64,000 nt of DNA from an uncultured bacterium (GTDB taxonomy: Bacteria; Margulisbacteria; WOR-1; JAKLHX01): the NCBI GenBank assembly GCA_964532225.1, contig CAZHHM010000005.1, positions 12,100 through 76,099 on the forward strand. The letters are read 5' to 3'. This document shows, one piece after another, positions 3,791 through 50,611 of this stretch (the stretch's first letter is position 1; every line of letters starts with the position of its first letter). The notes beneath the pieces were generated by a model. That model was not told the origin of the DNA, ran no database searches, and saw only the letters and a program-made list of their open reading frames with translations. Made by a program: the position numbers and the translations under genes.

Positions 3791-3844
3791 GTGTATATTA
3801 TAACACATTTATGTATAACTATTGATTGTTATTACACTTTTGTA

Positions 3845-5446: not shown

Positions 5447-7144
5447 TTATTGTTTTGTTATATCAATAAATTCTTCTATGGTCTTCGCGCCGAGGTCGCC
5501 GTTCTCGCGTGAACGGACAGCAACTTTACCGGCCTCAGCCTCCTTATCCCCCATGACCAGCATGAAAGGGACCTTTTGCATCTGGGCTTCCCTGATCTTA
5601 AAGCCCATCTTTTCACGCCTGTCGTCAAGCTCTACCCTGATCCCTTTTTGTTCGAGCTCAGCCCTGACCTTTGAAGCGTACTCAAGATGCTTGTCGGATA
5701 TCGGGATCAGCACTACCTGCACAGGAGCAAGCCAGTAAGGGAAAGCCCCTGCATAATGCTCTGTCAGAACGCCGATAAAGCGCTCCATGCTCCCCAGCAC
5801 CACCCTGTGTATCATGACAGGTCTCTTTTTGGAACCATCCTCTGCAATGTAGTTAAGGTCGAACCTCTCGGGAAGCGCAAAATCGACCTGTATGGTCGGC
5901 CCCTGCCATGCTCTGCCTATCGCGTCCTTGATCTTGACATCTATCTTTGGCCCGTAAAAAGCCCCGCCGCCAGGGTCAACGTCATATTTGATACCTTTGT
6001 TCTGCATCGCTTTTTCAAGCGCCTGGGTCGCGTGCTCCCAGCCTTTTTCTTCACCAACAAAGCTGTCCGGCCTGGTCGAAAGATATACTTCGTATTCTTT
6101 GAAACCAAAAGCCTTTAGCATGTCAAAAGCGAAATCTATGACATTGACTATCTCCTGCTCGAGTTTTTCCTCGGTGCAGAATATATGGGCGTCATCCTGG
6201 GTAAAGCCCCTTACTCTCATGAGACCGTGAAGGACACCTGACCTTTCGTGCCTGTATACCGTGCCCAGCTCGAAGAACTTGACAGGAAGGTCCCTGTAGC
6301 TTACCAGGCTCCTCTTGAATATCAGCATATGGCCCGGGCAGTTCATCGGCTTAAGGACATATTCCTGCTCGTCTATGTCCATGAAATACATGTTCTCTTT
6401 GTAATAGCTGCTGTGGCCCGAGGTGTTCCAAAGGTCTATCTTGGCAATATGAGGGGTAACGACCTGCTGATACCCTCTCTTCCTGTGCTCTTTTTTGAGG
6501 AACTGCTCTATAGTTTCACGCAGCACCGCTCCTTTTGGGTGATAGAACACAAGGCCGGCACCTGCTTCGTCATAGTAAATATTAAAGAGGTCAAGCTCTT
6601 TTCCTATCTTGCGGTGATCGCGCTTCACTGCCTCCTCAAGCCTCTTGAGGTATGCGTCAAGGTCTTCCTGCTTCTCAAAACAGGTGCCGTATATCCTCTG
6701 AAGCATCTGGTTCTTTTCGTCGCCTCTCCAGTAAGCCCCTGCTATCTTAAGCAGCTTGAACGCCTTTACCTGGCCTGTTGAATCGATATGAGGGCCTCTG
6801 CACAGGTCTATGAACTCACCGTTCTTGTAGAAAGAGACCTTGTCATCTTCAATGCCGTCCAGAAGCTCAAGCTTGAACTTCTCATTGTTATCCTTCATCA
6901 TCTTTACCGCTTCGGGCTTTTGAACTTCTACTCTTTCGAACTTTACGTTCTTCTTTATGATCTCGTTCATTTTCTTTTCAATGGCATCGAGGTCTTCGGG
7001 TGTCAGTGTGCGGCCAAGCTCAAAGTCATAATAGAATCCGTCATCGATAGACGGGCCTATGGCCAGTTTTGCTTCAGGGAACAGCTCTTTCACGGCCATT
7101 GCCATGACATGAGAGGTCGAGTGTCTTAATCTGTCGAGGTCCAT
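5447..7144 (-). CDS. thrS: Threonyl-tRNA synthetase (short form lacking the N-terminal TGS domain)
   Basis: 565 aa. Begins directly with the N2 editing-domain signature (RHSTSHVMAMAVKELFP). Class II core plus anticodon-binding domain with ThrRS motifs (GPKIDVKIKDAIGRAWQ). Confidence 0.9.
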   Translation of the reverse strand: MDLDRLRHSTSHVMAMAVKELFPEAKLAIGPSIDDGFYYDFELGRTLTPEDLDAIEKKMNEIIKKNVKFERVEVQKPEAVKMMKDNNEKFKLELLDGIEDDKVSFYKNGEFIDLCRGPHIDSTGQVKAFKLLKIAGAYWRGDEKNQMLQRIYGTCFEKQEDLDAYLKRLEEAVKRDHRKIGKELDLFNIYYDEAGAGLVFYHPKGAVLRETIEQFLKKEHRKRGYQQVVTPHIAKIDLWNTSGHSSYYKENMYFMDIDEQEYVLKPMNCPGHMLIFKRSLVSYRDLPVKFFELGTVYRHERSGVLHGLMRVRGFTQDDAHIFCTEEKLEQEIVNVIDFAFDMLKAFGFKEYEVYLSTRPDSFVGEEKGWEHATQALEKAMQNKGIKYDVDPGGGAFYGPKIDVKIKDAIGRAWQGPTIQVDFALPERFDLNYIAEDGSKKRPVMIHRVVLGSMERFIGVLTEHYAGAFPYWLAPVQVVLIPISDKHLEYASKVRAELEQKGIRVELDDRREKMGFKIREAQMQKVPFMLVMGDKEAEAGKVAVRSRENGDLGAKTIEEFIDITKQ

Positions 7145-7168
7145 GATGTTATTATAGCGCGTTTTTAA

Positions 7169-7299
7169 CCCTCACCCCGTCCCTCTCCCTTAACAGGGAG
7201 AGGGAGGATCTGGACCCTCACCCCGTCCCTCTCCCTTAACAGGGAGAGGGAGAATCTGGACCCTCACCCCGTCCCTCTCCCTTAACAGGGAGAGGGAGG
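7169..7299. repeat. Tandem array, 3 x 46 bp, each unit a palindromic element ccctcaccccgtccctctcccttaacagggagagggag plus atctgga
   Basis: Three near-identical units read directly. Each carries the inverted repeat ccctctccc/gggagaggg. The array lies between the thrS start codon (7144) and the DUF559 gene. It is followed by a T6 run on the plus strand. Confidence 0.85.
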
Positions 7300-7679
7300 A
7301 CTTTTTTGCGGTATTCAATTATTCTTTTGATGCGCTTTTTAACAAGCTCAAATCTGTTCATTACATCTTCATTGCTGATCCTGAAAACCATAATCCCAAG
7401 AGAATTCAGCACTTGAGTCCTCTGAAGATCATATTCTTTTCTGTGCTCATGGATCTTTCCGTCCACTTCGATCACAAGAAGCAGTTTCGAACAATAGAAA
7501 TCAGCTATAAAGAATGATAGAGGTTTTTGCCTGTTGAACTTGTATCCAGTATTTGCCTTGTCCCTTAAGAAGTATTTCCATAATTTCTCTTCTGTAAGTG
7601 TGGCAGCATTCCTTAGGGCCTTGGCTCTTTCTGTGAGCCTGACATCATAGCCAACATATCCTTTGGCAGGTCGTTGCAT
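7236..7679 (-). CDS. DUF559 (Vsr-like endonuclease fold) domain protein with a repeat-encoded C-terminal tail
   Basis: DUF559 signature ARxLRxxxTxxExxLWxxLR...KFxRQ...DFYC...LVIEVDG..H. The last ~21 aa (LPLPVKGEGRGEGPDSPSPC) are encoded by the 46-bp tandem repeats. Start taken at in-frame M14; the track ORF begins at a TTG at 7718. Confidence 0.6.
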   Translation of the reverse strand: MQRPAKGYVGYDVRLTERAKALRNAATLTEEKLWKYFLRDKANTGYKFNRQKPLSFFIADFYCSKLLLVIEVDGKIHEHRKEYDLQRTQVLNSLGIMVFRISNEDVMNRFELVKKRIKRIIEYRKKVLPLPVKGEGRGEGPDSPSPC

Positions 7680-7794
7680 ATTGCCGCATAGCCAGCAATT
7701 TTGCCGCCGGGCAAACAATTGAGGGCAAATACATTGAATACTAATGAGCCTGCCATATAATTAACGGGAATCAGCAGTTAACTTATCGATCATT

Positions 7795-7879
7795 GGATTG
7801 TCTCCCCTTGATAAATAGTAATCAGGGAACTTCTCTAAGCTTTAGAATATTGGACTGTCTCCCCTTGATAAAGGGGAGA
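7795..7879. repeat. Two direct copies of attgga(t/c)tgtctccccttgataaa; second copy forms hairpin tctcccc-ttgataa-aggggaga
   Basis: Read directly in the intergenic region between the DUF559 gene and dxr. Member of the C/T-rich palindromic repeat family. Confidence 0.6.
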
Positions 7880-7899
7880 TGGCCGAAGGCCAGAGGGGA

Positions 7900-9066
7900 T
7901 TACCCCCGCCCAGCCTCTTCCCTTGCCCATTTCTCGGCTTCAAGCACCTGCTGAAGGGAAGGTTTGCGGATGAGTTGGTGCCGTTTCATGACGGATGCAA
8001 CGATCTTCGGGATGTCGGTGAACCCTATCTTGCCCTTAAGGAAAAGCTCGACCGCGCTGTCGTTCGCGGCTGAAAGCACAGCAGGCATCGTGCCGCCGGT
8101 CTTTCCTGCCTTGTAAGCGAGCGCCAGACACGGGAATTTTTCCATATCAGGCTTAAAGAATTGCATAGACCCAAGCTTTGGGAAATCGACCGAGCCATGA
8201 ATGTTCTTTTTTCTTTCGGGATAGGTCAGAGCGTACTGTATGGGAGTCCTCATGTCCGGAACGCCAAGCTGTGCTATTACCGAGCCGTCGATGAACTCGA
8301 CCATGGAGTGCACTATGCTCTGCGGATGCACAACTACATCGATCTTTTCGTACGGCACGCCGAACAGATGATGCGCCTCGATCACCTCAAGCCCTTTGTT
8401 CATAAGAGAAGCGGAGTCTATCGTTATCTTCGGCCCCATGTTCCACGTCGGATGCTTGAGCGCGTCTTTTGCTTTGACCTTCTTCAGCTGAGCTTTCGAA
8501 AAGTTCCTGAACGGACCGCCTGAAGCAGTTAAAATGAGCCTTTTGATCTGCTCAACCCTGTACCCCGCACCCTGCGTCCTGCCTTCAAGGCTTTGGAATA
8601 TCGCACTATGCTCGCTGTCCAGAGGAAGCAGCTGAGCTTTGTGCTTTTTAACAAGCGGCATTACGATATCCCCGGCCGCGACCAGGACTTCCTTGCTCGC
8701 AAGAGCTATCGTTTTTCCTTTTTTTATGGCTTCGATAGTGGCCGAAAGGCCCGGAGTGCCTACTATGGACATCACGACGATATCCGTAGAAGTGTCCGTG
8801 GCCAGTTTTGAAAGCCCTTCCCTGCCCGCATACACCTTCATCCCAGACCTTTTATACTTTGAAAGGTCAACATCGTCGTCCGAGATGGAGACGGCTTTTG
8901 GTTTGAACTTCGCTATCTGCTTGTCAAAGAGGTCAAGATATCCTTTAGTGGCAAGGCCGATTATCTGAAAGTCAGATAAAAAGGCAGACACCACATCGAG
9001 CGTCTGCCTTCCTATAGAACCCGTTGAACCTAATACTGCGATCCGTTTCTTCATTTGCTTCTTCAT
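7900..9066 (-). CDS. dxr: 1-deoxy-D-xylulose 5-phosphate reductoisomerase
   Basis: N-terminal NADPH-binding motif IAVLGSTGSIGRQTLDV. Length and conserved Dxr blocks. Confidence 0.9.
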   Translation of the reverse strand: MKKQMKKRIAVLGSTGSIGRQTLDVVSAFLSDFQIIGLATKGYLDLFDKQIAKFKPKAVSISDDDVDLSKYKRSGMKVYAGREGLSKLATDTSTDIVVMSIVGTPGLSATIEAIKKGKTIALASKEVLVAAGDIVMPLVKKHKAQLLPLDSEHSAIFQSLEGRTQGAGYRVEQIKRLILTASGGPFRNFSKAQLKKVKAKDALKHPTWNMGPKITIDSASLMNKGLEVIEAHHLFGVPYEKIDVVVHPQSIVHSMVEFIDGSVIAQLGVPDMRTPIQYALTYPERKKNIHGSVDFPKLGSMQFFKPDMEKFPCLALAYKAGKTGGTMPAVLSAANDSAVELFLKGKIGFTDIPKIVASVMKRHQLIRKPSLQQVLEAEKWAREEAGRG

Positions 9067-9105
9067 CCCTCTCCCTTATTAAGGGAGAGGGACAGAGGGT
9101 GAGGG
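9067..9105. repeat. Palindromic repeat element ccctctccc-ttattaa-gggagaggg followed by cagagggtgaggg
   Basis: Inverted repeat read directly between dxr and ilvC. Its reverse complement resembles the 7169-7299 repeat unit (ccctcacc...tccctctccctta). Confidence 0.6.
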
Positions 9106-20838: not shown

Positions 20839-21618
20839 CTATCTGTCTTCTATGATGATGTACGGGGTCCCCAGACCGCTCTCAAGACCCTCGTACCTAA
20901 TGAACTGATGAGGGGCCGCGCTCTCAAGCCAGAAATACGTCTTGGGCACGAAAGCACCCAGCATGTTGACCAGCCCAAGGTCAGGCACCATTTCTATCTT
21001 GTTGCAAAGCATTTCTGTGCCTTTGACGGTTATCTTTTCTTTGCCAAGGTTCTTTCCCGTCATCTTATAGGAAGTGGGCTCATGCGTCAGAAGACTAAAG
21101 ATGAACTCTTTCTTTTCGAACGGGAAGTTCGACATGCTGATGCCCAGATTCTCTTTGTCGATCATGCCTTCGGTATACTTTATCTCTTTGGTCTTGCCGT
21201 TCTCCGTGAACAGGACCTTGCCTTCTTTAGGAAGGTAATCTTTTTGAAAAGAGCGCAGCACTTTGCCGCTCTTATCCTTGAACTCGCCCTTTACCTGATG
21301 CGGGACCAGCTTGTCCCCTTCGATCCTGAAGAAAGACCTCACGGCCCAAGTCTTGTATGTTCCGTCCTTGCCCCAGATGCCTTCCCCTTTGTCCTCGATA
21401 TAAAGGAAAGGCTTGCCCTGCACATCGACTTTCTTGGTCACAATAGTGTTCTGCCAGAGGCTCCTGCCTGAGGACTTTTCTACCGCCTTTGTCCCTCTCG
21501 CACCTATATGCAGATCGGACATCATAAAAGCCTCGGAGATCGCGGGTGCCGCAATCACCACGGCCAGGAGAAGAAGTGACGCAGATATCTTTTTTATCAT
21601 ATGTCCATCCTTTTTCAT
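20839..21618 (-). CDS. Hypothetical secreted protein
   Basis: Signal peptide MIKKISASLLLLAVVIAAPAISEA. Lys-rich mature part, no recognised family. Confidence 0.5.
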   Translation of the reverse strand: MKKDGHMIKKISASLLLLAVVIAAPAISEAFMMSDLHIGARGTKAVEKSSGRSLWQNTIVTKKVDVQGKPFLYIEDKGEGIWGKDGTYKTWAVRSFFRIEGDKLVPHQVKGEFKDKSGKVLRSFQKDYLPKEGKVLFTENGKTKEIKYTEGMIDKENLGISMSNFPFEKKEFIFSLLTHEPTSYKMTGKNLGKEKITVKGTEMLCNKIEMVPDLGLVNMLGAFVPKTYFWLESAAPHQFIRYEGLESGLGTPYIIIEDR

Positions 21619-21710
21619 TGATTTTGAGCCATTATAACACCGGTGAAGTCGCTCTTCAATTTAATCCGGAACAGTGAAATTGCAAGCTGGTTTTGAAGAT
21701 AAGGATATGT

Positions 21711-23003
21711 ATGAGCTCATTTTCAAGGACATCATTAGTGCGCCACCCAATATTGTCTACAAGGGCGCTAGTTGAAAAGATCAACAACATATACTACCCG
21801 AAGGTCCAGTTCAGGTACATAAACAATGACCATATCCAGCCTCTGAGCGTGTTCGACTCGCATACGATAATAAGCAGCATCAACGGGATAGGCGGACATC
21901 CGGGCACCATCAACTGGAAAAGCATGATCCCGTTCGTGGGAGCCGCCTATTCTGCAATCAAAGCCGTCGACAGGGCAACGGTATCTTCTGCTTTTATGAA
22001 CGGTAAAGACGTCCCTAACAATATCGAGATAACATACGATATCTCCGTAAAGAAACAGGCCTTCAAGGTTGGCGCCAGTCTGTACCTGATGATGGAGGGA
22101 TTCCCTCTTCTTAACCTGGGCATTCTCGGCGTACCGCTTGATTTTCTGGAGGCCTTCTCCTATCTGACACTTAACGCCGCAAGGAACGTTTTTGCCGATC
22201 TGGGGGCAAAGCACGGATGGAACATCAGGCAATGGAGAGCACATCCGGAGCACCTCAAGATCACAAAGCTGACGACCTCCCTTATCGTAACCTCGCTTTC
22301 GTACCCACTTCTATCTTTCATGAAGAACATGACATATTTCGAGTTCGGCGATTCTCCGTGGGTCTGGGTCGCGACACCTTTGACCCTCACAATGCTTGAC
22401 GGAGCGATACAGTATGTATCAAGAAAAATGAGAGGCTTCGACAATTCCATGGCCAAGTATGATTTCTTCCGGCCTGTCGTAGGGGACACGCTGTCAACAC
22501 TGTCCTTCTTCTTGTCAGGCATGGATATCGCGGGCAATTTTTCCTATCTTATCCTAAGAAAGGTCTTCTCTGAGCTCTGGACGGGACATTTTGAAAGCTC
22601 GACCAAACGCCGCGAAAAGATCATCGAAAGGCAGGAACAGTTCAAGGAGATCCTTGACATAAAAAGATATCTGGTACCCGACCCTATCGCGACATCCTCG
22701 ATCAATTTCGTGTACATGATGAACGTAAAATCTCTGGCTCAAAGGTCTTTCTCCGAACTGCTTTCCGATCAGGATTTTGTTTCAAACAACCGAAAAGTGC
22801 TACTCGACATACACAAATGCCTTACAGAGAACGGAGAACGCACCGATAAAGCGGTCGATTTTCTGTTCCCCGCCGGCAAGTTCAGGGTCTTCGGCGACGT
22901 AATGAAGGAACGTTTTTCCGAGAATAAGGCCGGCTATCTGGATTGGTACCGGGTGAATATCGGGCTTTTTGAAAGGTCCGTCGTGGAAGGGATAACGCGA
23001 TGA
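21711..23003 (+). CDS. Hypothetical protein with several hydrophobic segments (island ORF)
   Basis: Start moved to the ATG (MSSFSRT...) preceded by AAGGA; the track begins at a TTG. No recognisable motifs. Translationally coupled (ATGA) to the downstream LysM gene. Confidence 0.4.
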   Translation: MSSFSRTSLVRHPILSTRALVEKINNIYYPKVQFRYINNDHIQPLSVFDSHTIISSINGIGGHPGTINWKSMIPFVGAAYSAIKAVDRATVSSAFMNGKDVPNNIEITYDISVKKQAFKVGASLYLMMEGFPLLNLGILGVPLDFLEAFSYLTLNAARNVFADLGAKHGWNIRQWRAHPEHLKITKLTTSLIVTSLSYPLLSFMKNMTYFEFGDSPWVWVATPLTLTMLDGAIQYVSRKMRGFDNSMAKYDFFRPVVGDTLSTLSFFLSGMDIAGNFSYLILRKVFSELWTGHFESSTKRREKIIERQEQFKEILDIKRYLVPDPIATSSINFVYMMNVKSLAQRSFSELLSDQDFVSNNRKVLLDIHKCLTENGERTDKAVDFLFPAGKFRVFGDVMKERFSENKAGYLDWYRVNIGLFERSVVEGITR

Positions 23004-23434
23004 CGGCGCCTGCGAGAAAAACGCGCTACAGCAGTGCGTCCAGCATCGGCATCAGGCTTATAAAGAGCGGGCTCATGATTAACAGCGGCAAGGTGACACT
23101 TCTTATAAAAGAGAACGATACGCTTTGGAACATCGCTGTAGCGATAAGAAAGACCGCCCCTCTGTGTTCGATGGTATCGGTCAATAAGATAGTGAGCATG
23201 CTGATGATACAGAACGGGATAGCGCAAGAGAAGGACCTCCTTCCGGGAACGGTGATCACGTTCACCCTACATTTTCCGGAACTTGCCCCCTCGGTGCCAT
23301 CAGAGACCTTGCCTGTAAAAAAGCCTTTCTGGAAAGACCCCGCATCAAACCGCTTCTTCAGACCGGTAAAAAGGATAGAACCGGCCGATCTGCACGAGCT
23401 ACTGACCAAGATGTTCGGCTCTGACGGTAGATAG
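23000..23434 (+). CDS. LysM-domain protein
   Basis: LIKENDTLWNIAVAI...LLPGTVITF LysM-like motif, paralogous to the DTLWDIA LysM in the 12473-15040 protein. Confidence 0.5.
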   Translation: MTAPARKTRYSSASSIGIRLIKSGLMINSGKVTLLIKENDTLWNIAVAIRKTAPLCSMVSVNKIVSMLMIQNGIAQEKDLLPGTVITFTLHFPELAPSVPSETLPVKKPFWKDPASNRFFRPVKRIEPADLHELLTKMFGSDGR

Positions 23435-23512
23435 GTCTTTATCTTTTTTAAATTACTCGTCTTTAACTGAAATCACTTACTTATATGAACGATATATACT
23501 CAGAAAGACTAA

Positions 23513-25870
23513 ATGGGAACAAACATCGGTAGCAGAACGATCGCAACGGACCTTATCAGGTCGAGACGGCCTTTCATCGAAAGGTCTTTGTCGAACAGCG
23601 GTTTTGAAAGGATCTCCGGATCCAGACCTGCTGTCAACGCTTTAACAAAGCTAAGCCTTGGCATGATACTGAGGTCCGAGGCGGAATCCAGGCTCAAAAG
23701 ATCGGGCATAGAGATCACTCCTCCGCTAAGCGTTCATCTGGACTCATACTTCAGGACACCTCCGGCTGCCACAGCCGACCGAGGGACTCAGACCTCAGGA
23801 GAGCCGCTTCAGATGCTGAGAGGGACCCCGGGCGAGGTCCTTGATGCGATAAGTATGATAAGGGCAGGCCTATCCTCAGACGACCGCAGACAGTACCTTA
23901 AGCAGGACATATACGATTCTTTTATCGATATCCTCCTTGCCGGCGGAATAAACCCGTTCATTAAAAGTTCGATCACCGAACAGGTGCTGCCCAAATACAG
24001 CCACTCACGTTTCGGGACGGAACGCTCTCTTATCCTGCATATATCACTGCTAAAAGGTAAAAAAGACCATGAAGCAGCGGTCAAAGAGCTCTCTAATTTC
24101 GGAGCGAAATGCTTTTCAGAGAACGCACTGGGGACAGCCATTCCGGATATTCTCTCCCCAAAGCTGAAACATCCTCCTCAGTACGCAGACGGGCTTATAA
24201 CTTTGTTCCGCACAAAGAACAGGACAAGCTTCAGCGACAGGAACTTTGACCTGTGCATCGGGTTCGATACCAAGGCACACACCCCGGACATGACCAGGAC
24301 GTTCCTTGGTCTGCTTGATGCGTTCTTACTTTCCGGAAAGATCAGCAGGGAACGTATTTCGGACGCCTTCAACATAGCTTCCGGAATACTTTTGACCCAG
24401 GCATTCGACAAAAAGTCCGTGCTTCATGCCATGTCGGTGATCAGGAGCTCAGCCGCGAGTGTTCCCGAAGGCGCCGGAAATGCGCTCGCTTCAAGGATCA
24501 TTTACCTTTGCAGGGACCATGACAGCCAGGTCTCTTACGGAGCACTAAAAACCGCCGCCAGTCTCTTTGCTTCGGCAAAGATCCCTTCAACAGAAGAACT
24601 TAATGCTATTGCGTTTTCCAAGCTTAAGGACCACAACTTTGAATGCAGGGCCGGCGCCTGCTCACTGATATCTGCACTTTTCGACAAAGGCGCTATTTGC
24701 GGTATTTCCACACAGAGGAATGTCAGGTCGGCGATAAAACCTCTTGGCGCTTTGGGGCAAGAGCAGGCCCGTGACGTGCTGGCTTTTCTTGAACGGGCCC
24801 ATAAGGAAGACAAGTCCTCCTTTGACAGGGACAACCTCGAACATCTGCTCGACATCTGGTCCCGCGATGAAGCTCCCGGATCGAGCGGAATGCATCTTTG
24901 GATGGTGCCGGCTCTGGCATTCTTTGACTGCATGCCTCCCGAAGAAAGGACCTATTGCGCCCTGTCAGGCATACTGCAAAGCAAAGACTACACGCACCGG
25001 TCCGCAGACGCTTTCATGAGACTGGTCAATTCTATGCTGACAGCAGAGAATGTCGGCGCCGAGACAATATTCTCGACGATCTGGGAATTCTGCAGGAACG
25101 AAGGCCAGGCAGTCACTAAAGACCTGATCGGCATGATGCGCTCCATACCCGGATGGGAAAGGGATAACAACTTATCAGGCATTGAGGACATCATGCAGAT
25201 ATCCCTAAGACATATGGACCCGTCTTTCCCGGGAATGACATGGAAAGAGCTGCTGGCAAAAGAAGTAAAAATGCTTGTCAGGTATTTGCGGGACGTAAAG
25301 AATACCGGTTTTCCGGAAGACCTGATGAAAAAAGCGGCTTTTAAATATACTTATATCGTCAGGAACGGAGGCATAGAGAAAGCCGATCTTGAGGACCTTG
25401 ATAAGGACCGGCTCACTCTGGATGACATCGACAACATGTACGACCTGAGAAATGATATCAATCCGTACTTCCTTGCTCTTGAAGCGCAGTTGAGGATAGT
25501 GACAGAGTCCCTTACGAAAGCCAAGAAGGACAAAAGCTTAGGCAGGGACGCGGTCAAAAGGCTTGAAGAGCAAAAGGCGCTGCTGACCTCGGAAACAAGG
25601 CAAAAGAGGAAGAAGCTTATCACGCTTGCCGTCATGTTCAACAGCGTTCAGAGATACCCTTCGCAGCTCCTTTCAAAGCCGGAGATAAAAAGCTTCGTTG
25701 ATGAATTCAGGGCAACGCTCAACCTCAGGAATTCCATACCTCAGATAATGATAGAAAAATTAAAGATCATCCTTTGGGATAACTGGGAAGCGGTCGAGAC
25801 CATTGCGGAGAGGGTCAAAGCCGAGGTTAAGGGGCTGAAAGAAGAATTCCTAATATTCGAGGAAAAATAA
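23513..25870 (+). CDS. Large hypothetical alpha-helical protein (785 aa)
   Basis: Long ORF with no enzyme motifs recognised. C-terminal coiled-coil-like region. Ends 8 bp before tRNA-Leu. Confidence 0.4.
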   Translation: MGTNIGSRTIATDLIRSRRPFIERSLSNSGFERISGSRPAVNALTKLSLGMILRSEAESRLKRSGIEITPPLSVHLDSYFRTPPAATADRGTQTSGEPLQMLRGTPGEVLDAISMIRAGLSSDDRRQYLKQDIYDSFIDILLAGGINPFIKSSITEQVLPKYSHSRFGTERSLILHISLLKGKKDHEAAVKELSNFGAKCFSENALGTAIPDILSPKLKHPPQYADGLITLFRTKNRTSFSDRNFDLCIGFDTKAHTPDMTRTFLGLLDAFLLSGKISRERISDAFNIASGILLTQAFDKKSVLHAMSVIRSSAASVPEGAGNALASRIIYLCRDHDSQVSYGALKTAASLFASAKIPSTEELNAIAFSKLKDHNFECRAGACSLISALFDKGAICGISTQRNVRSAIKPLGALGQEQARDVLAFLERAHKEDKSSFDRDNLEHLLDIWSRDEAPGSSGMHLWMVPALAFFDCMPPEERTYCALSGILQSKDYTHRSADAFMRLVNSMLTAENVGAETIFSTIWEFCRNEGQAVTKDLIGMMRSIPGWERDNNLSGIEDIMQISLRHMDPSFPGMTWKELLAKEVKMLVRYLRDVKNTGFPEDLMKKAAFKYTYIVRNGGIEKADLEDLDKDRLTLDDIDNMYDLRNDINPYFLALEAQLRIVTESLTKAKKDKSLGRDAVKRLEEQKALLTSETRQKRKKLITLAVMFNSVQRYPSQLLSKPEIKSFVDEFRATLNLRNSIPQIMIEKLKIILWDNWEAVETIAERVKAEVKGLKEEFLIFEEK

Positions 25871-25878
25871 GCCCTATT

Positions 25879-25962
25879 TGCCGTTGGAGAGACTCGAACT
25901 CTCAAGAGTGTTACCTCACATGGTCCTAAGCCATGCGCGTATGCCAATTCCGCCACAACGGC
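25879..25962 (-). tRNA. tRNA-Leu (anticodon TAG), type II with long variable arm
   Basis: Folded by eye: acceptor gccgttg/caacggc, 3-bp D stem, anticodon stem catgg/ccatg with loop cttagga, T arm gagag-ttcgagt-ctctc, discriminator A. No encoded CCA. Confidence 0.8.
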
Positions 25963-26045
25963 ACGTAGTCCATTTTAACACGCACGGTATTGACATTTTA
26001 TCTCCAAGCTATATGATATCCCTGCCTAAAGAAAGGAGCCAACAG

Positions 26046-27215
26046 ATGAAACATTTCGCGATCATGGCGTTCCTGCTTGCAATGACATCACATTCCTTTG
26101 CTGCGCTGTATATCGGCGAGACGAAAGCGATACTTGAAAGCATATCAAATAAGAGAGCCGAGATAAATTTCGCCTACGATTCGTCCCCTGCCCCGAAGTT
26201 CGCGATGTGGCCTTCGGACAGCAAGTTCGAGGTCTATTACAGGATGTGGGACGACTCCAAGCTTGCGGGTTATTCTCTGAACGTTTGGCAGACATTAGAC
26301 ATGTACAACTTCAACACTTGGGCATGGACAATTGGCGGCACGGGTAATAGCGCTACAGGCACTGACACGATGCGGGGAAAATATGACAATTCAGGGATAT
26401 GGAACATATACCCCTTGAACCAGGGGAACGTGACAAAGTTCAAGCTGACATTGAGCGCGGACACCAAAAGCATACCAAGAAGGACAGAAAGCAGGGAGTT
26501 CTACGTACTTAAGAACATGCCTGACGGCTCGAGGACCGCAAAGAAACAGGCCGCGATGAAATGGATAGTCGGACGGCTTGAACGTGCAACAATGTTCAGG
26601 AACATGGCCGATACATGGAAGGCAAAAAGGACCTCCACGTCTTCTGTCAACTACAACCTTGAAATGGGAAAGATCATCATGAGCGCTGCGGGGCTTTTCG
26701 GTCCTACTGACGCAAAAGGATACGCAATAGACAGCGGCATTGAGTTCCTGGACCTCGCCTCCTCCGTCTTCGGGAATGTCGCGACAAGCAGCCTGGTCTC
26801 TGTAGGCGGGGCCGTCTATCAGGCTTATGACTGGGGAACATGGGCAAAAAGCACGCTGCAGTCATCCGCAAACCTTTGGAATTCCGCATTTAGCGATTTC
26901 AGGGCTTCCCAGACGGCAAATCTGGTAGGCACAGGCCTTGAGAATGATCTTTACAACCTTGCTAACGCCATGAGGGATGATGCCAACGAAGTTATCAGAA
27001 TAATGTACACTGCTCCCTACGACAGCACTGCGAATTGGAAGAGCCTGTTAAGCCTTGAAAAAAGCCGGGCCAACAGCGTCGGTGTATCTGCCGCATCGGC
27101 AAAGAGCAAAGCGGACCAGATCTGCGGCACCGGATCTAACCTTTCGAATTTCTTTGAGACGATAAACAAGCTTGCTAACGCGGAATGGATGGTGCTGAAT
27201 CAGATATCATTCTGA
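26046..27215 (+). CDS. Hypothetical secreted protein (389 aa)
   Basis: Start MKHFAIMAFLLAMTSHSFAA (signal peptide) after SD AAGGAG. The track ORF start upstream overlaps tRNA-Leu and is not credible. Confidence 0.45.
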   Translation: MKHFAIMAFLLAMTSHSFAALYIGETKAILESISNKRAEINFAYDSSPAPKFAMWPSDSKFEVYYRMWDDSKLAGYSLNVWQTLDMYNFNTWAWTIGGTGNSATGTDTMRGKYDNSGIWNIYPLNQGNVTKFKLTLSADTKSIPRRTESREFYVLKNMPDGSRTAKKQAAMKWIVGRLERATMFRNMADTWKAKRTSTSSVNYNLEMGKIIMSAAGLFGPTDAKGYAIDSGIEFLDLASSVFGNVATSSLVSVGGAVYQAYDWGTWAKSTLQSSANLWNSAFSDFRASQTANLVGTGLENDLYNLANAMRDDANEVIRIMYTAPYDSTANWKSLLSLEKSRANSVGVSAASAKSKADQICGTGSNLSNFFETINKLANAEWMVLNQISF

Positions 27216-27227
27216 CAACAGCAAAAA

Positions 27228-27260
27228 GGGGCCACGCTTTCGCGTGGCCTTTTCTATTTT
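27228..27260 (+). terminator. Rho-independent terminator
   Basis: ggccacgc-tttc-gcgtggcc hairpin followed by ttttctatttt, 13 nt after the stop at 27215. Confidence 0.6.
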
Positions 27261-27269
27261 TAAGTAATA

Positions 27270-27331
<62 letters not shown>

Positions 27332-27342
<11 letters not shown>

Positions 27343-27520
27343 ACAATGTCAAACAAGAAACGCTAACGATACTCCCTAGTCCCTCGCCCCAATGCCATCC
27401 AGGCGAGGGGCTAATGGCGCATTAAGCTGAACAAGTACCACAAAAGTAACTTCCTAGTCCCGAGCCCCAGTGCCATCCAGGCGAGGGGCTAATGGCGCAT
27501 AACGTCATACAAGAAACACC
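27332..27520. repeat. 78-bp tandem direct repeats (2 full + 1 partial) each beginning with a copy of the tRNA-Lys 5' end (gctaatggcgca)
   Basis: gctaatggcgca recurs at about 27332, 27410 and 27488. Each unit carries a hairpin ccctcgcc...ggcgaggg and the block acaagaaac. Confidence 0.7.
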
Positions 27521-27537
27521 AACTTATTGATTATAAC

Positions 27538-29025
27538 ATGATGGATTTTCTGTTTCCTCCCCTGCCTTTGTGTGAAATCCATGGAATAAACAACCGAGAT
27601 ATTGGCATGGGAACACCGACGGTCAGGAATTCATATGCAAGGCCTATCATGTATATCAAGGAAGCATGCAGGTCCTATTGGAATCTCCTGAAGCGGCCCG
27701 AGGCTTATTCAAAAATGCCCTTCCTTTACGGGATAAAAAGCATACTTGAGACCCCTAACTCAAAACTCATAGCAGATCTCAGAACAGAACTGGAAAACCT
27801 CTATTCCATAAACGGCGGTAAGCATCCAGTTAAGTACTACCTTCTTAATGAGAACATGAGGGAAGCACTGTTCAATACACAGGCGACAGCATGCAGGACG
27901 ATAATTGATAAGGTCAACGCAAGATATAATGTCGACCTTTACAGGTCCCCGCTCATCCATCAATTCGGCTGGCCGGAGTCTATGCTCACCGAGGTCAACA
28001 GATCGTCAAAATTGAGCCTGAGGATGGTGACCGTAGTATCCGATGAATGGGCCTATTCCGAAAAAGCCCTGAAATTAGCTTTCGAACTCGGGCAGGCCCT
28101 AGCGGAACATGACATTCTCCCTGTCATCGGCCAAGACAATCCGCTGATCAGGTCAATGCTTGACGGGCTGCATGGTAACGGGGGCAGTTCGGTCGGGATA
28201 CTTGAGAATTTCTTTGACATGCCCGATGTTACATTAAGGGTCCAGGCCAATGTCGGGGACCTGAGAGCAAGCATTCTTACCCGCAGCGGACGGGTAATGA
28301 TAAAGCTAGGCAGCGATGACCTTTTCAAAGGCATATTCAGAACGCATGGGCAAGAAAGGCCAAGTGACACTTTCGGTGCCCAGGTCACGGCCTTCGCACG
28401 GGAACAAGCAATAGATATCCATGCTCTTGATCCGGAGACCTCTCCTGATATCGTCGGGACCTCCGAATGGCTGCAGGACAAGCTTTGCTTTGCCAACGGC
28501 ATTAAGAAGTATTCCGAAGCATTAAAAGCCAGACCTTATCAGATAGCGATCATCGGCTCCATGAACACCAACATAGATTCCCCGATAAACCTTACCACTG
28601 TACCAAGAAGCATCGGGAAATGGTATGGAGAGAATAATTTCTCAACTAGCAACGGCGGAGGTCCGGGCACAATGGAGACGCTTGCAGAGGGAGTGGCGAT
28701 CTCAAGGGGAATCGCCATAGGCCTCTCCCCCGATATCTCCTATGTCGACTGTAACAAGGGCATCGACATTCCCATCCCGACCGGTGTAAGCTTTGGAAGG
28801 GATTGCATGGTGCCTACAAGCGGAGGCTTCGTCACGTCGTTCCCCGGGTTGACCGGTACCATTGATGAAATAATCTACGGAATGAAACATGACAGGCATG
28901 TAATTTCACTTTTCGGGCCCATTCCTGAAGATGCGTCGGGATACCACAAACTGCACAGGGTCTATTCTGAGGAAGAGCTGAAAACCACCACTTTAGAGCT
29001 TAGGGACAGACTGTCACTGAGATGA
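27538..29025 (+). CDS. Hypothetical protein with C-terminal LOG/SLOG-like (TIGR00730-type Rossmann) domain
   Basis: ELGQALAEHDILPVIGQDNPLIRSMLDGLHGNGGSSVGIL, NGGGPGTMETLAEGV and SFPGLTGTIDEIIYG resemble LOG-family blocks (GLVYGGG..GLMG..A; PGGFGTLEEL). N-terminal ~190 aa unrecognised. Start uncertain. Confidence 0.45.
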   Translation: MMDFLFPPLPLCEIHGINNRDIGMGTPTVRNSYARPIMYIKEACRSYWNLLKRPEAYSKMPFLYGIKSILETPNSKLIADLRTELENLYSINGGKHPVKYYLLNENMREALFNTQATACRTIIDKVNARYNVDLYRSPLIHQFGWPESMLTEVNRSSKLSLRMVTVVSDEWAYSEKALKLAFELGQALAEHDILPVIGQDNPLIRSMLDGLHGNGGSSVGILENFFDMPDVTLRVQANVGDLRASILTRSGRVMIKLGSDDLFKGIFRTHGQERPSDTFGAQVTAFAREQAIDIHALDPETSPDIVGTSEWLQDKLCFANGIKKYSEALKARPYQIAIIGSMNTNIDSPINLTTVPRSIGKWYGENNFSTSNGGGPGTMETLAEGVAISRGIAIGLSPDISYVDCNKGIDIPIPTGVSFGRDCMVPTSGGFVTSFPGLTGTIDEIIYGMKHDRHVISLFGPIPEDASGYHKLHRVYSEEELKTTTLELRDRLSLR

Positions 29026-29186: not shown

Positions 29187-29244
29187 ATATGGAGATTTTA
29201 TCACAGGGGGACCTTTGATATACTATACGCAGGAGGTACCTACA

Positions 29245-29802
29245 ATGAAAAAACATCTATTGCTGTTCGTGTTGATCCTGGCGACCTTTTCTGCCGTTTG
29301 CAATGCCATGAGCCTCACCGAACTTAACAAATCGATAGAAAAACAACCGCTTAACAGCGACCTGTATTTCCAAAGAGGTAATGCGCTTTTCGCCAGAGCG
29401 CAATACGACAAAGCTATCCGTGACTATACAAGGTCAATTGAGCTGTACCCTAATAATTTCATCGGATATTTCAACAGGGGCAATGCTTTCATGAACCTCG
29501 GCATGTTCGATGCGGCCGCGGCAGACTACACCACCTCAATATTGCTTAAGCCGGACTATGCCGACGCATACTTTAACAGAGGCAACGTCCATTCCACTAC
29601 AGGTCAGCTTCAAAAAGCCCTTTCCGACTTCAGGCAGGCAACGATCTTTAACAACAGGGACGCAGAAGCGTTCTTCATGTGCGGGAGTATTTCTGCAGTG
29701 CTCGGCCTTAAAGAGACTGCCAGGCAGGATTACGAATCGGCCCTGAAGCTTGATCCCGGGATGAAAAAAGCAAAGGATGCTCTGAGCTCGCTGGGCAGAT
29801 AG
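29245..29802 (+). CDS. TPR-repeat protein with signal peptide
   Basis: Start MKKHLLLFVLILATFSAVCNA after SD AGGAGGT. 34-aa TPR units (YFQRGNALF..., YFNRGNAFM..., YFNRGNVHS...). Confidence 0.65.
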   Translation: MKKHLLLFVLILATFSAVCNAMSLTELNKSIEKQPLNSDLYFQRGNALFARAQYDKAIRDYTRSIELYPNNFIGYFNRGNAFMNLGMFDAAAADYTTSILLKPDYADAYFNRGNVHSTTGQLQKALSDFRQATIFNNRDAEAFFMCGSISAVLGLKETARQDYESALKLDPGMKKAKDALSSLGR

Positions 29803-49684: not shown

Positions 49685-50611
49685 CTAGATATCGCCTTCT
49701 TTGAGAGGCATGAACTCGCAATAGTCTTTGATCGATCTGTACCTTGAAGTGATCTCCTGGTGTGTCAGATCGCGCATCCTGTCTAGCGAGAAACCTTCAA
49801 CGTTGTAGGAGGCCATTACCGTTCCGATCACAACGGCTTTCTTCATGTTCTCCACGGACCTGTCTCCCGTCTTTGCGAGGTATCCAGCGAACCCTCCCGC
49901 GAAACTGTCGCCTGCTCCTGTAGGATCGATAAGCATTTCTTGCGGGAACGAAGGTGCTGAGAATCTGGTCTTTTTTGTGAAGAAAAGCGCTCCGTGCTCT
50001 CCTTTTTTGATTATAACATGCTTGGCCCCCTCTGCCAGTATTCCGGATGCTGCTGAGATCAGGTTCGGCGTACCCATCAGCTCCCTAGCCTCCATCTCAT
50101 TAAGAAGCATGACATCTACGCTCCTTATTACCTGCATGAGCTTCTCTTTCTTTGTCTGGATCCAGTAATTCATTGAATCGGCGATCACAAGATCGGTGCC
50201 CTTCATCTGGCCTATGATCCTGAGCTGCAGTTCTGGGTCAAGGTTCGCGAGGAAAACGATCCGGCTGTCCAGATACTCTTCAGGCAGCTCCGGATCGAAC
50301 TGAGAGAGCACGTTAAGGTCCGTTTTAAGGGTATGCGCCTGGTTCATGTCGAACTCGTAGTAACCGCTCCAGCGGAAGGTCTTACCTTCGCGGTAGCGGA
50401 CACCTTTCAGGTCCACCTTTTTTGATGAAAGGAAATCAATGTGCTCTGCGGGAAAATCCTTGCCGATGACGCTTACCAGCCTCACGGGAGAGAAAAAGCT
50501 GGCAGCTACTGCTGAGTGGACCCCTGACCCGCCAAGACATGCCTTCCTTTCACCGAAAGGCGTTTTTACATCGTCAAGGGCCATGGAGCCTGCTATGAGG
50601 ACGGGTTTCAT
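49685..50611 (-). CDS. PfkB-family carbohydrate/nucleoside kinase
   Basis: N-terminal GG motif ([14 protein letters not shown]) and C-terminal [13 protein letters not shown]. Confidence 0.8.

Follow-up and report, generated by a model that had tools for sequence, protein, structure and literature searches.

Tandem 78-bp units that copy the 5' end of tRNA-Lys lie in the predicted leader of its gene in an uncultured bacterium

Introduction

The closest known analogue of the repeats reported here lies beside the tyrT-tyrV genes of E. coli, where the repeat region is annotated as the small RNA RttR (rttR / rtT RNA, tpr) and where the rtT RNA has been described as being involved in the processing of the tyrT transcript (10.1101/2024.07.17.603846). 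We checked this locus here. The unit is 178 bp long and is present in 3.1 copies just downstream of tyrV; the last 19 nt of tRNA-Tyr recur every 178 bp.

The transcribed tRNA spacer 3'ETS-leuZ, also from E. coli, acts as an RNA that base-pairs with small RNAs and carries no copy of a tRNA end. Integrases that target tRNA genes normally duplicate the 3' end of the tRNA. The att duplications at tRNA genes comprise the part from the anticodon loop to the 3' end and flank a multi-kilobase element that bears an integrase; they include the short-core type of tRNA-dependent lysogeny (PMC10865867). Short copies of a tRNA end are usually read as the footprints of mobile elements. In the locus described here, the copy sits in a predicted hairpin of the tRNA's own leader and is apparently conserved.

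Results

The window, i.e. the whole 64-kb stretch of DNA that was analyzed, is ordinary bacterial chromosome with genes for ThrRS, Dxr, IlvBNC, LipA-like, PdxA, KsgA, RuvA, RuvC, QueH, PlsY, GpsA and HflX-like proteins. Four tRNA genes on the minus strand (Leu, Lys, Arg, Arg) are interleaved with orphan genes on the plus strand. The block of plus-strand orphan genes at 21693-29025 encodes proteins of 436, 144, 785, 389 and 472 aa with signal-peptide-like N-termini; Pfam matches occurred only in the 472-aa SLOG protein. The start of its gene, 27607, was taken from the 472-aa database version, and among 5.8 billion proteins this SLOG cluster4 protein found no homologue but itself. Exact look-ups of the window proteins returned two short Logan contigs only, both of which break at tRNAs. 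The samples SRR10083292 and SRR10083294 contain this organism.

Upstream of tRNA-Leu and of the tRNA-Arg pair (window 25963-26048 and 29187-29245), a TAAAAT hexamer stops 7 nt short of the mature 5' end in each case, and another sigma-70-like site lies farther from the gene. These promoters share sequence with the ribosome-binding sites of divergent plus-strand genes; the longest ORFs of these genes begin well ahead of the real starts (ATG 26046 and about 29243). None of the other tRNAs of the window has an upstream copy of its own 5' end.

Such copies exist upstream of tRNA-Lys. A 12-mer (GCTAATGGCGCA) occurs at exactly three sites in the window, 27332, 27410 and 27488, compared to 0.28 sites expected by chance, and none of 100 shuffled sequences reached three. 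On the plus strand this 12-mer is the reverse complement of tRNA-Lys nt -1 to +11 (UGCGCCAUUAGC), that is, of tRNA nt 1-11 (27342-27332) together with the preceding T (27343). Because the tRNA-Lys(CTT) gene is on the minus strand, the re-copied piece is its 5' end and both extra copies lie upstream (5') of the tRNA. Tandem Repeats Finder (TRF) reported a 78-bp period with 2.4 copies and 78% matches at 27332-27519, and a repeat search found two full 78-nt copies at 78% identity plus three copies of 36 nt. The first-pass annotation had reported that the 5' end of tRNA-Lys recurs at about these three positions with a period of 78 bp; the exact count, TRF and the repeat search all agree with this.

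Read in the orientation of the tRNA, a unit consists of the 12-mer, a part with the GC hairpin and CUAGGNAGU, and a U-rich leader. The order in the region is promoter, L3 (24 nt), 12-mer, X (42 nt), L2 (24 nt), 12-mer, X, L1 and tRNA (Table 1). The identity between unit A and unit B is uneven: the 12-mers match at 12/12 positions, the hairpin parts at 36/42 and the leader parts at 13/24 (Fisher p = 0.002), i.e. the core of 12-mer and hairpin is far better kept than the leader. A GC hairpin and a ACAAGAAAC block had been described for each unit, and both descriptions hold in part. The perfect hairpin CCCTCGCC/GGCGAGGG (27381-27409) is confined to the tRNA-proximal unit A, while the distal unit B has CCCGAGCC and with it two central mismatches. 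The ACAAGAAAC block is present in copies 1 and 3, but copy 2 has ACAAGTACC in its place.

Table 1. Positions of the features around the tRNA-Lys gene in the window.
Feature	Position	Strand	Remarks
Bidirectional intrinsic terminator	27226..27253	both	terminator-like sites on both strands; common to the tRNA (minus) and the convergent ORF 26046-27215 (plus)
tRNA-Lys(CTT) gene	27270..27342	-	Rfam tRNA 75.5 bits; ARAGORN 27269-27343
Unit A, adjoining the tRNA	27344..27421	-	12-mer 27421-27410; hairpin part X 27409-27368; leader L1 27367-27344
Unit B, distal	27422..27499	-	12-mer 27499-27488; hairpin part 27487-27446, two central mismatches; diverged leader L2 27445-27422
Leader copy L3, promoter-proximal, 24 nt	27500..27523	-	19/24 identical to L1
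Extended -10 promoter TGTTATAAT for tRNA-Lys	27530..27538	-	upstream of all three 12-mers
Divergent neighbor, orphan protein with C-terminal SLOG cluster4 domain	27607..29025 (ORF from 27538)	+	Pfam PF18306, E = 3e-25

Several simple origins of the unit were considered and rejected. It is not a decayed tRNA copy, a tRNA pseudogene or a tandem tRNA: the similarity to the tRNA ends at nt 11 in both units, and neither ARAGORN nor Rfam calls a tRNA there. The insert also shows no similarity to the sequence upstream of the promoter from which it might have been derived. With Rfam, no family of any kind was found in 27344-27537, even at E <= 5.

A 28-codon ORF (MTLCAISPSPGWHWGSGLGSYFCGTCSA) was read by eye on the minus strand (window 27448-27509). 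It starts in leader L3, spans unit B and ends at a TAA just before the second 12-mer. A small conserved leader ORF was rejected, since in the leader of a related locus (L016, see below; sequences also read by eye) the open frame is placed differently with respect to the 12-mer; because the frame is not conserved, the ORF in unit B is probably non-coding.

The promoter motif TGTTATAAT that precedes the array occurs at four sites in the window compared to 0.25 expected. Ahead of tRNA-Lys it is invariant in five related loci (L016, L010/L017, L027, L028 and L030), and it appears to be the strong extended -10 promoter consensus of this organism. All four sites (3797-3805, 21631-21639, 27530-27538 and 50010-50018) are on the minus strand, and one of them, for example, is directly upstream of the gene starting at 21618. 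The likeness of L3 to the rest of the array ends exactly at 27523, 24 nt upstream of the first 12-mer; the next 12 bases have no matches. Counted from the -10 hexamer, 27523 is the 7th base, where transcription is predicted to start. Because the promoter is upstream of the array and the likeness ends at the expected start, the repeats lie within a predicted 5' leader of ~180 nt. From the conserved promoter upstream of the array we infer that the repeats are co-transcribed with tRNA-Lys and released by processing.

We searched metagenomes for related loci. A first scan with the hairpin core of the window gave no match. A scan for two 12-mers 58-88 bp apart, the upstream one without the following T, resulted in 13 loci, 10 of which were chance matches in coding repeats without tRNAs; the other three were true counterparts (L016 and L010/L017). 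The same pattern gave only two chance matches, inside unrelated repeats, in a genome collection of species representatives that does not include the source genome. The three true counterparts share with the window the synteny of QueH, tRNA-Arg(tcg), tRNA-Arg(ccg) and tRNA-Lys(ctt). Upstream of tRNA-Lys they have TGTTATAAT, a short U/C-rich leader, one extra TGCGCCATTAGC, a 65-nt insert and then the intact tRNA. The breakpoint in the tRNA is the same as in the window, and the sequence of the GC hairpin is different. The idea of a small repeat family derived from a tRNA end, which the first-pass annotation had offered, thus comes close: a like unit with the same breakpoint precedes the orthologous tRNA-Lys in relatives. 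Within the 64-kb window the unit is not a dispersed repeat. The QueH proteins of the relatives are about 58-60% identical to that of the window and resemble proteins from Margulisiibacteriota and Omnitrophica MAGs. Since the nearest QueH relatives are only ~60% identical, the organism represents a deep, poorly sampled lineage. Other QueH-anchored loci (L005-L008 and L022-L026) were left out because they were too distant or because the contigs ended before tRNA-Lys.

Three further lineages (L027, L028 and L030) were reached via homologues of the upstream membrane-protein gene. Two of them have no unit: tRNA-Lys follows TGTTATAAT after 9 nt in L028 and after 11-12 nt in L030. The module is thus dispensable. 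Position 7 of tRNA-Lys is T in lineages with the unit and A in those without it.

Some of these loci have additional features at tRNA-Lys. In L027 (5575-5732) a GTCCCTCGAC...GCTCGGGAC hairpin stands directly before the tRNA-Lys start with no 12-mer ahead of it. Of the tRNA only nt 1-21 come next, and the ~85 nt beyond them are other sequence, in which GTTGATATAAT and another GATAATTTTATTT promoter/leader copy occur; no intact tRNA-Lys is reached before the end of the contig. A second TTCGACTCCCCYTCG, which is the start of the leader insert of that lineage, occurs immediately after the tRNA-Lys 3' end in L010 (3041-3055) and L017 (2104-2118), beside an IS3-like rve transposase gene. In L016 a 505-aa ORF of a large serine recombinase (6640-8157, plus strand) runs antisense through the whole tRNA-Lys (8096-8168, minus strand). 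Its stop codon TGA is the antisense of tRNA nt 12-14, i.e. it lies at the breakpoint of the 12-mer duplication, which may be a coincidence or a link to an att site.

Next we consider the predicted fold of the unit. In a predicted hairpin of ~21 bp, the base is formed by pairing of the 12-mer with CUAGGNAGU. Unit A folds with -30.3 kcal/mol (z = -2.4) and the unit of L016 takes the same form (-29.0 kcal/mol, z = -2.7); the fold of unit B has no advantage over shuffled sequence (z = 0.08). The partner of the 12-mer after the GC helix is CUAGGGAGU in the window and CUAGGCAGU in L016. On the level of primary sequence the similarity between the inserts of the window and L016 is not significant alone (p = 0.4 for unit A and 0.03 for unit B); they have in common, in the same order, CCCCTCGNC, GGGCTCGGG (unit B only) and CTAGGNAGT.

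A covariance model was built from the two window units alone. In the window it matched unit A (27370-27421, 82.9 bits) and unit B (27448-27499, 78.1 bits), and with filters off it found no further copy in the whole 64 kb. In 59 kb of related loci it matched only the units of L010/L016/L017, at full length and with 22 bits (E about 0.002-0.003). A generic intergenic repeat, widespread and with no relation to tRNA loci, was the alternative that the first-pass annotation had named; within the 64-kb window the unit is not of this kind, the matches of the model being the two units only. In the alignment from the model 86% of the cells are paired, compared to 33-50% in controls with slid partners. 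At two pairs both bases have changed, and several G-U pairs are kept. The observed covariation score was reached by 46 of 500 shuffles. Because there are only three distinct module sequences, the support from covariation is weak, and it is suggestive of a shared RNA structure.

When a truncated transcript is folded, the predicted acceptor stem contains the upstream copy, or decoy, in place of the true 5' strand. A riboswitch-like switch, in which the anti-12-mer strand would invade the true 5' end of the tRNA, was rejected; with the decoy blocked, the predicted cloverleaf is still intact.

The array could in principle serve the other strand, as operator or promoter elements of the divergent SLOG gene. 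The first-pass annotation had placed it in the promoter region of this LOG-like gene, and the array does lie in the divergent intergenic region that adjoins the gene, with its end 84 nt before the annotated start at 27607. However, the relatives with the unit have a different upstream gene, which is co-oriented and encodes an ECF-S-like membrane protein, and they have no SLOG gene; the link to the SLOG gene is therefore not conserved. No plus-strand promoter-like site was found in 27344-27606, and the conserved G-U pairs favor an RNA structure on the tRNA strand. A role on the plus strand is hardly credible on these data, and the SLOG gene is probably outside the element.

The comparison between L010 and L016 provides information on constraint. 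Overall identity of the two contigs is about 85-90%. Four-fold sites of the adjacent gene have diverged at 25 of 87 positions (29%), and such differences persist to 13 codons before the stop. No difference exists within the 150 nt made up of the 12-mer, the insert and the tRNA (100% identity); ahead of the 12-mer, the short leader is not the same in the two contigs and has a 9-nt indel among its differences. The chance that 65 neutral bases remain unchanged is ~3e-10. The finding of an identical unit and tRNA in spite of the 29% four-fold divergence suggests purifying selection on the unit. The block of identity is limited by the 12-mer on one side and by the tRNA 3' end on the other. At the latter, the synteny breaks next to the serine recombinase (L016) or the IS3-like transposase (L017) and the contigs diverge completely. 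Because the edge of the block coincides with a synteny break flanked by a recombinase or a transposase, it is possible that the identity of L010 and L016 results from a recent exchange of the block instead of selection.

These data also bear on a neutral explanation, in which slippage or unequal crossing-over created a duplication spanning the leader and tRNA nt 1-11 that has no function and persists since it is harmless. The 100% conservation of the unit between L010 and L016 against a four-fold divergence of 29% is difficult to reconcile with this, and so is the fact that the same tRNA breakpoint and hairpin architecture are found in lineages with a QueH that is only 58% identical. The head-to-tail tandem geometry with its 78-bp period would fit, and the E. 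coli tyrT locus is proof that tandem repeats copying a tRNA end do arise. The weakened hairpin and strongly diverged leader of unit B look like decay, and some related lineages are without any unit; the conservation within the window is uneven, however, with the core better kept than the leader. Together, this makes a purely neutral by-product rather unlikely.

We further examined the interpretation of the first-pass annotation that the stacked copies reflect serial integration and excision at this tRNA. The 12-mer would then serve as crossover core for a site-specific recombinase directed at the 5' part of tRNA-Lys, and the 66-nt segments would be remnants of elements which integrated serially and were later deleted; in a variant, the element brought an intact tRNA, as in tRNA-dependent lysogeny. 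The window does not agree with this reading. What is copied from the minus-strand tRNA is nt -1 to +11, i.e. the 5' end and not the 3' part. An element would not fit into the 66 nt from one copy to the next, and Pfam searches with the ORFs tested between 431 and 34413 revealed no integrase or transposase. A partial tRNA copy at a far boundary was also looked for: blastn-short with the tRNA against the whole 64-kb window returned two 11-nt copies only, and neither the window nor the 8 kb downstream in L016 contains a remnant of tRNA nt 12-73. The DNA downstream of the tRNA contains, past the 5.5-kb block of orphan ORFs (21693-27215), core housekeeping genes such as RuvA, RuvC, KsgA, PdxA, IlvBNC, Dxr and ThrRS.

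The relatives give the integration reading some substance. Their tRNA-Lys locus is a recombination hot spot, with a synteny between L010 and L016 that ends at the tRNA 3' end, the large serine recombinase ORF antisense through the tRNA in L016 and the IS3-like rve transposase in L017. The length of the partial tRNA copy varies by lineage (11 nt in the window and L016, 21 nt in L027), and position 7 of the tRNA differs with the presence of the unit. Short-core integration at tRNA-Lys with an element-borne replacement tRNA is known from mycobacteriophages (PMC10865867). However, the inserts keep one hairpin architecture across lineages, and the viral, phage and plasmid collections that were searched contain no sequence similar to the unit. 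We consider it quite unlikely that the repeats are integration scars.

The window contains a family of REP-like GC hairpins (CCCTCTCCC-N6-GGGAGAGGGAC plus GGGTGAGGG). The stretch 7168-7300, with the ThrRS gene on one side and a DUF559 gene on the other, has three perfect-looking tandem 46-bp units; a single copy in inverted orientation (9067-9105) fills the 39-bp gap between dxr and ilvC.

Hairpins of similar flavor in the same window raise the question of whether a REP-like or miniature mobile hairpin element was inserted at the tRNA leader and amplified locally, with the 12-mer either traveling along or marking a preferred target. The GGGCGAGGGAC of the unit resembles the GGGAGAGGGAC of those elements (p about 0.04), but this likeness is short and marginally significant, and the covariance model scores the REP-like elements at E = 6-7, which is noise. 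Also in favor of such an element are the CCCTCGAC...GCTCGGGAC hairpin of L027, which is directly upstream of the tRNA without a preceding 12-mer, and the second TTCGACTCCCCYTCG right after the tRNA 3' end in L010/L017. Against this, no RAYT or IS200-like transposase was seen with Pfam in the ORFs tested. The many dispersed copies typical of REP/BIME sequences are absent within the 64 kb, where the covariance model matches two units only, and in all sequence available the unit is found at tRNA-Lys only. A mobile hairpin of this type is an improbable source of the array.

Discussion

Our favored interpretation, to which we assign a probability of about one half, is that the repeats are a structured 5' leader module (external transcribed spacer) of the tRNA-Lys(CTT) precursor, which was born from a partial duplication and duplicated in tandem here, and that they are not integration scars. 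The unit is probably a working part of the tRNA precursor rather than such a scar, because related uncultivated bacteria keep one such unit unchanged. The interpretation builds on what the data show: how the array is organized, that its promoter is conserved, that orthologous modules exist and have kept their sequence, and that a hairpin is predicted.

According to the leader model, transcription probably starts near 27523 from the TGTTATAAT promoter (27538-27530), and the transcript would run ~180 nt through two 78-nt modules and then into the tRNA. Each module would open with a decoy copy of tRNA nt -1 to +11. This decoy would be locked in the 21-bp hairpin by pairing with the conserved CUAGGNAGU (helix P1), stacked under the GC-rich helix P2, and the P1 pairing would keep it from competing with the true 5' strand for the 3' acceptor strand of the tRNA. 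A cut by RNase P at the true 5' end of the tRNA would release the hairpin-bearing leader. If co-transcription and this processing step take place as we infer, the leader RNA may have a role in folding control, in stability or as a released small RNA. The module could have originated from a partial duplication of the leader and the tRNA 5' end and would have been retained in at least two deep lineages; the extra tandem duplication in this genome probably occurred via unequal recombination between the repeated leader and 12-mer segments.

Some observations speak against the leader model. The hairpin of unit B is weakened, and the module is missing from L028 and L030. The model also gives no reason for the decoy staying identical to the tRNA.

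A more far-reaching version is that selection maintains the unit in a candidate-phylum clade as a previously undescribed RNA element, namely a leader hairpin with a 5' strand that exactly mimics the 5' end of tRNA-Lys. It would either be cut by RNase P as an RNA of ~78 nt, in which case the array would be a multi-copy precursor, or control the maturation of tRNA-Lys(CUU). Alternatively, the unit could be a miniature cassette with site specificity for nt 11/12 of tRNA-Lys, the 5' end of which it would restore. We put these possibilities forward tentatively and consider them rather unlikely.

If the leader hairpin is functional, it would be a 5' counterpart of the E. coli tyrT/rtT repeats, and the tRNA precursor would contain an imitation of its own 5' end. 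This would bear on pre-tRNA folding, on the choice of the RNase P site and on small RNAs derived from spacers in bacterial phyla of which little is known. Should the hairpin have no function, the locus is still a warning against calling genomic islands from short tRNA-end repeats alone.

The array can be compared with four known systems. It resembles att-site duplications in that a short exact partial copy adjoins an intact tRNA gene and in that tRNA-Lys is concerned; it differs from them since the 5' end is copied, the spacing is 78 bp and there is no element. With REP/BIME sequences it shares GC-rich hairpins that are able to form short tandem arrays in intergenic DNA, but REP sequences are dispersed in many copies while the unit of the window occurs only at tRNA-Lys and includes a tRNA fragment. 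The likeness to spacers of the 3'ETS-leuZ type is that of a non-tRNA part of the precursor which appears to be under selection and may be released by tRNA processing. As in the tyrT/rtT system, the tandem units directly abut the tRNA gene and each has an exact copy of a tRNA terminus. In E. coli this is the 3' end, downstream of the gene and in a unit of 178 bp, whereas in the window it is the 5' end, upstream between promoter and tRNA and in a unit of 78 bp. No sequence or Rfam relationship to rtT RNA was found (E <= 5). Unlike in tyrT/rtT, the copied tRNA segment of the window is sequestered in a predicted hairpin.
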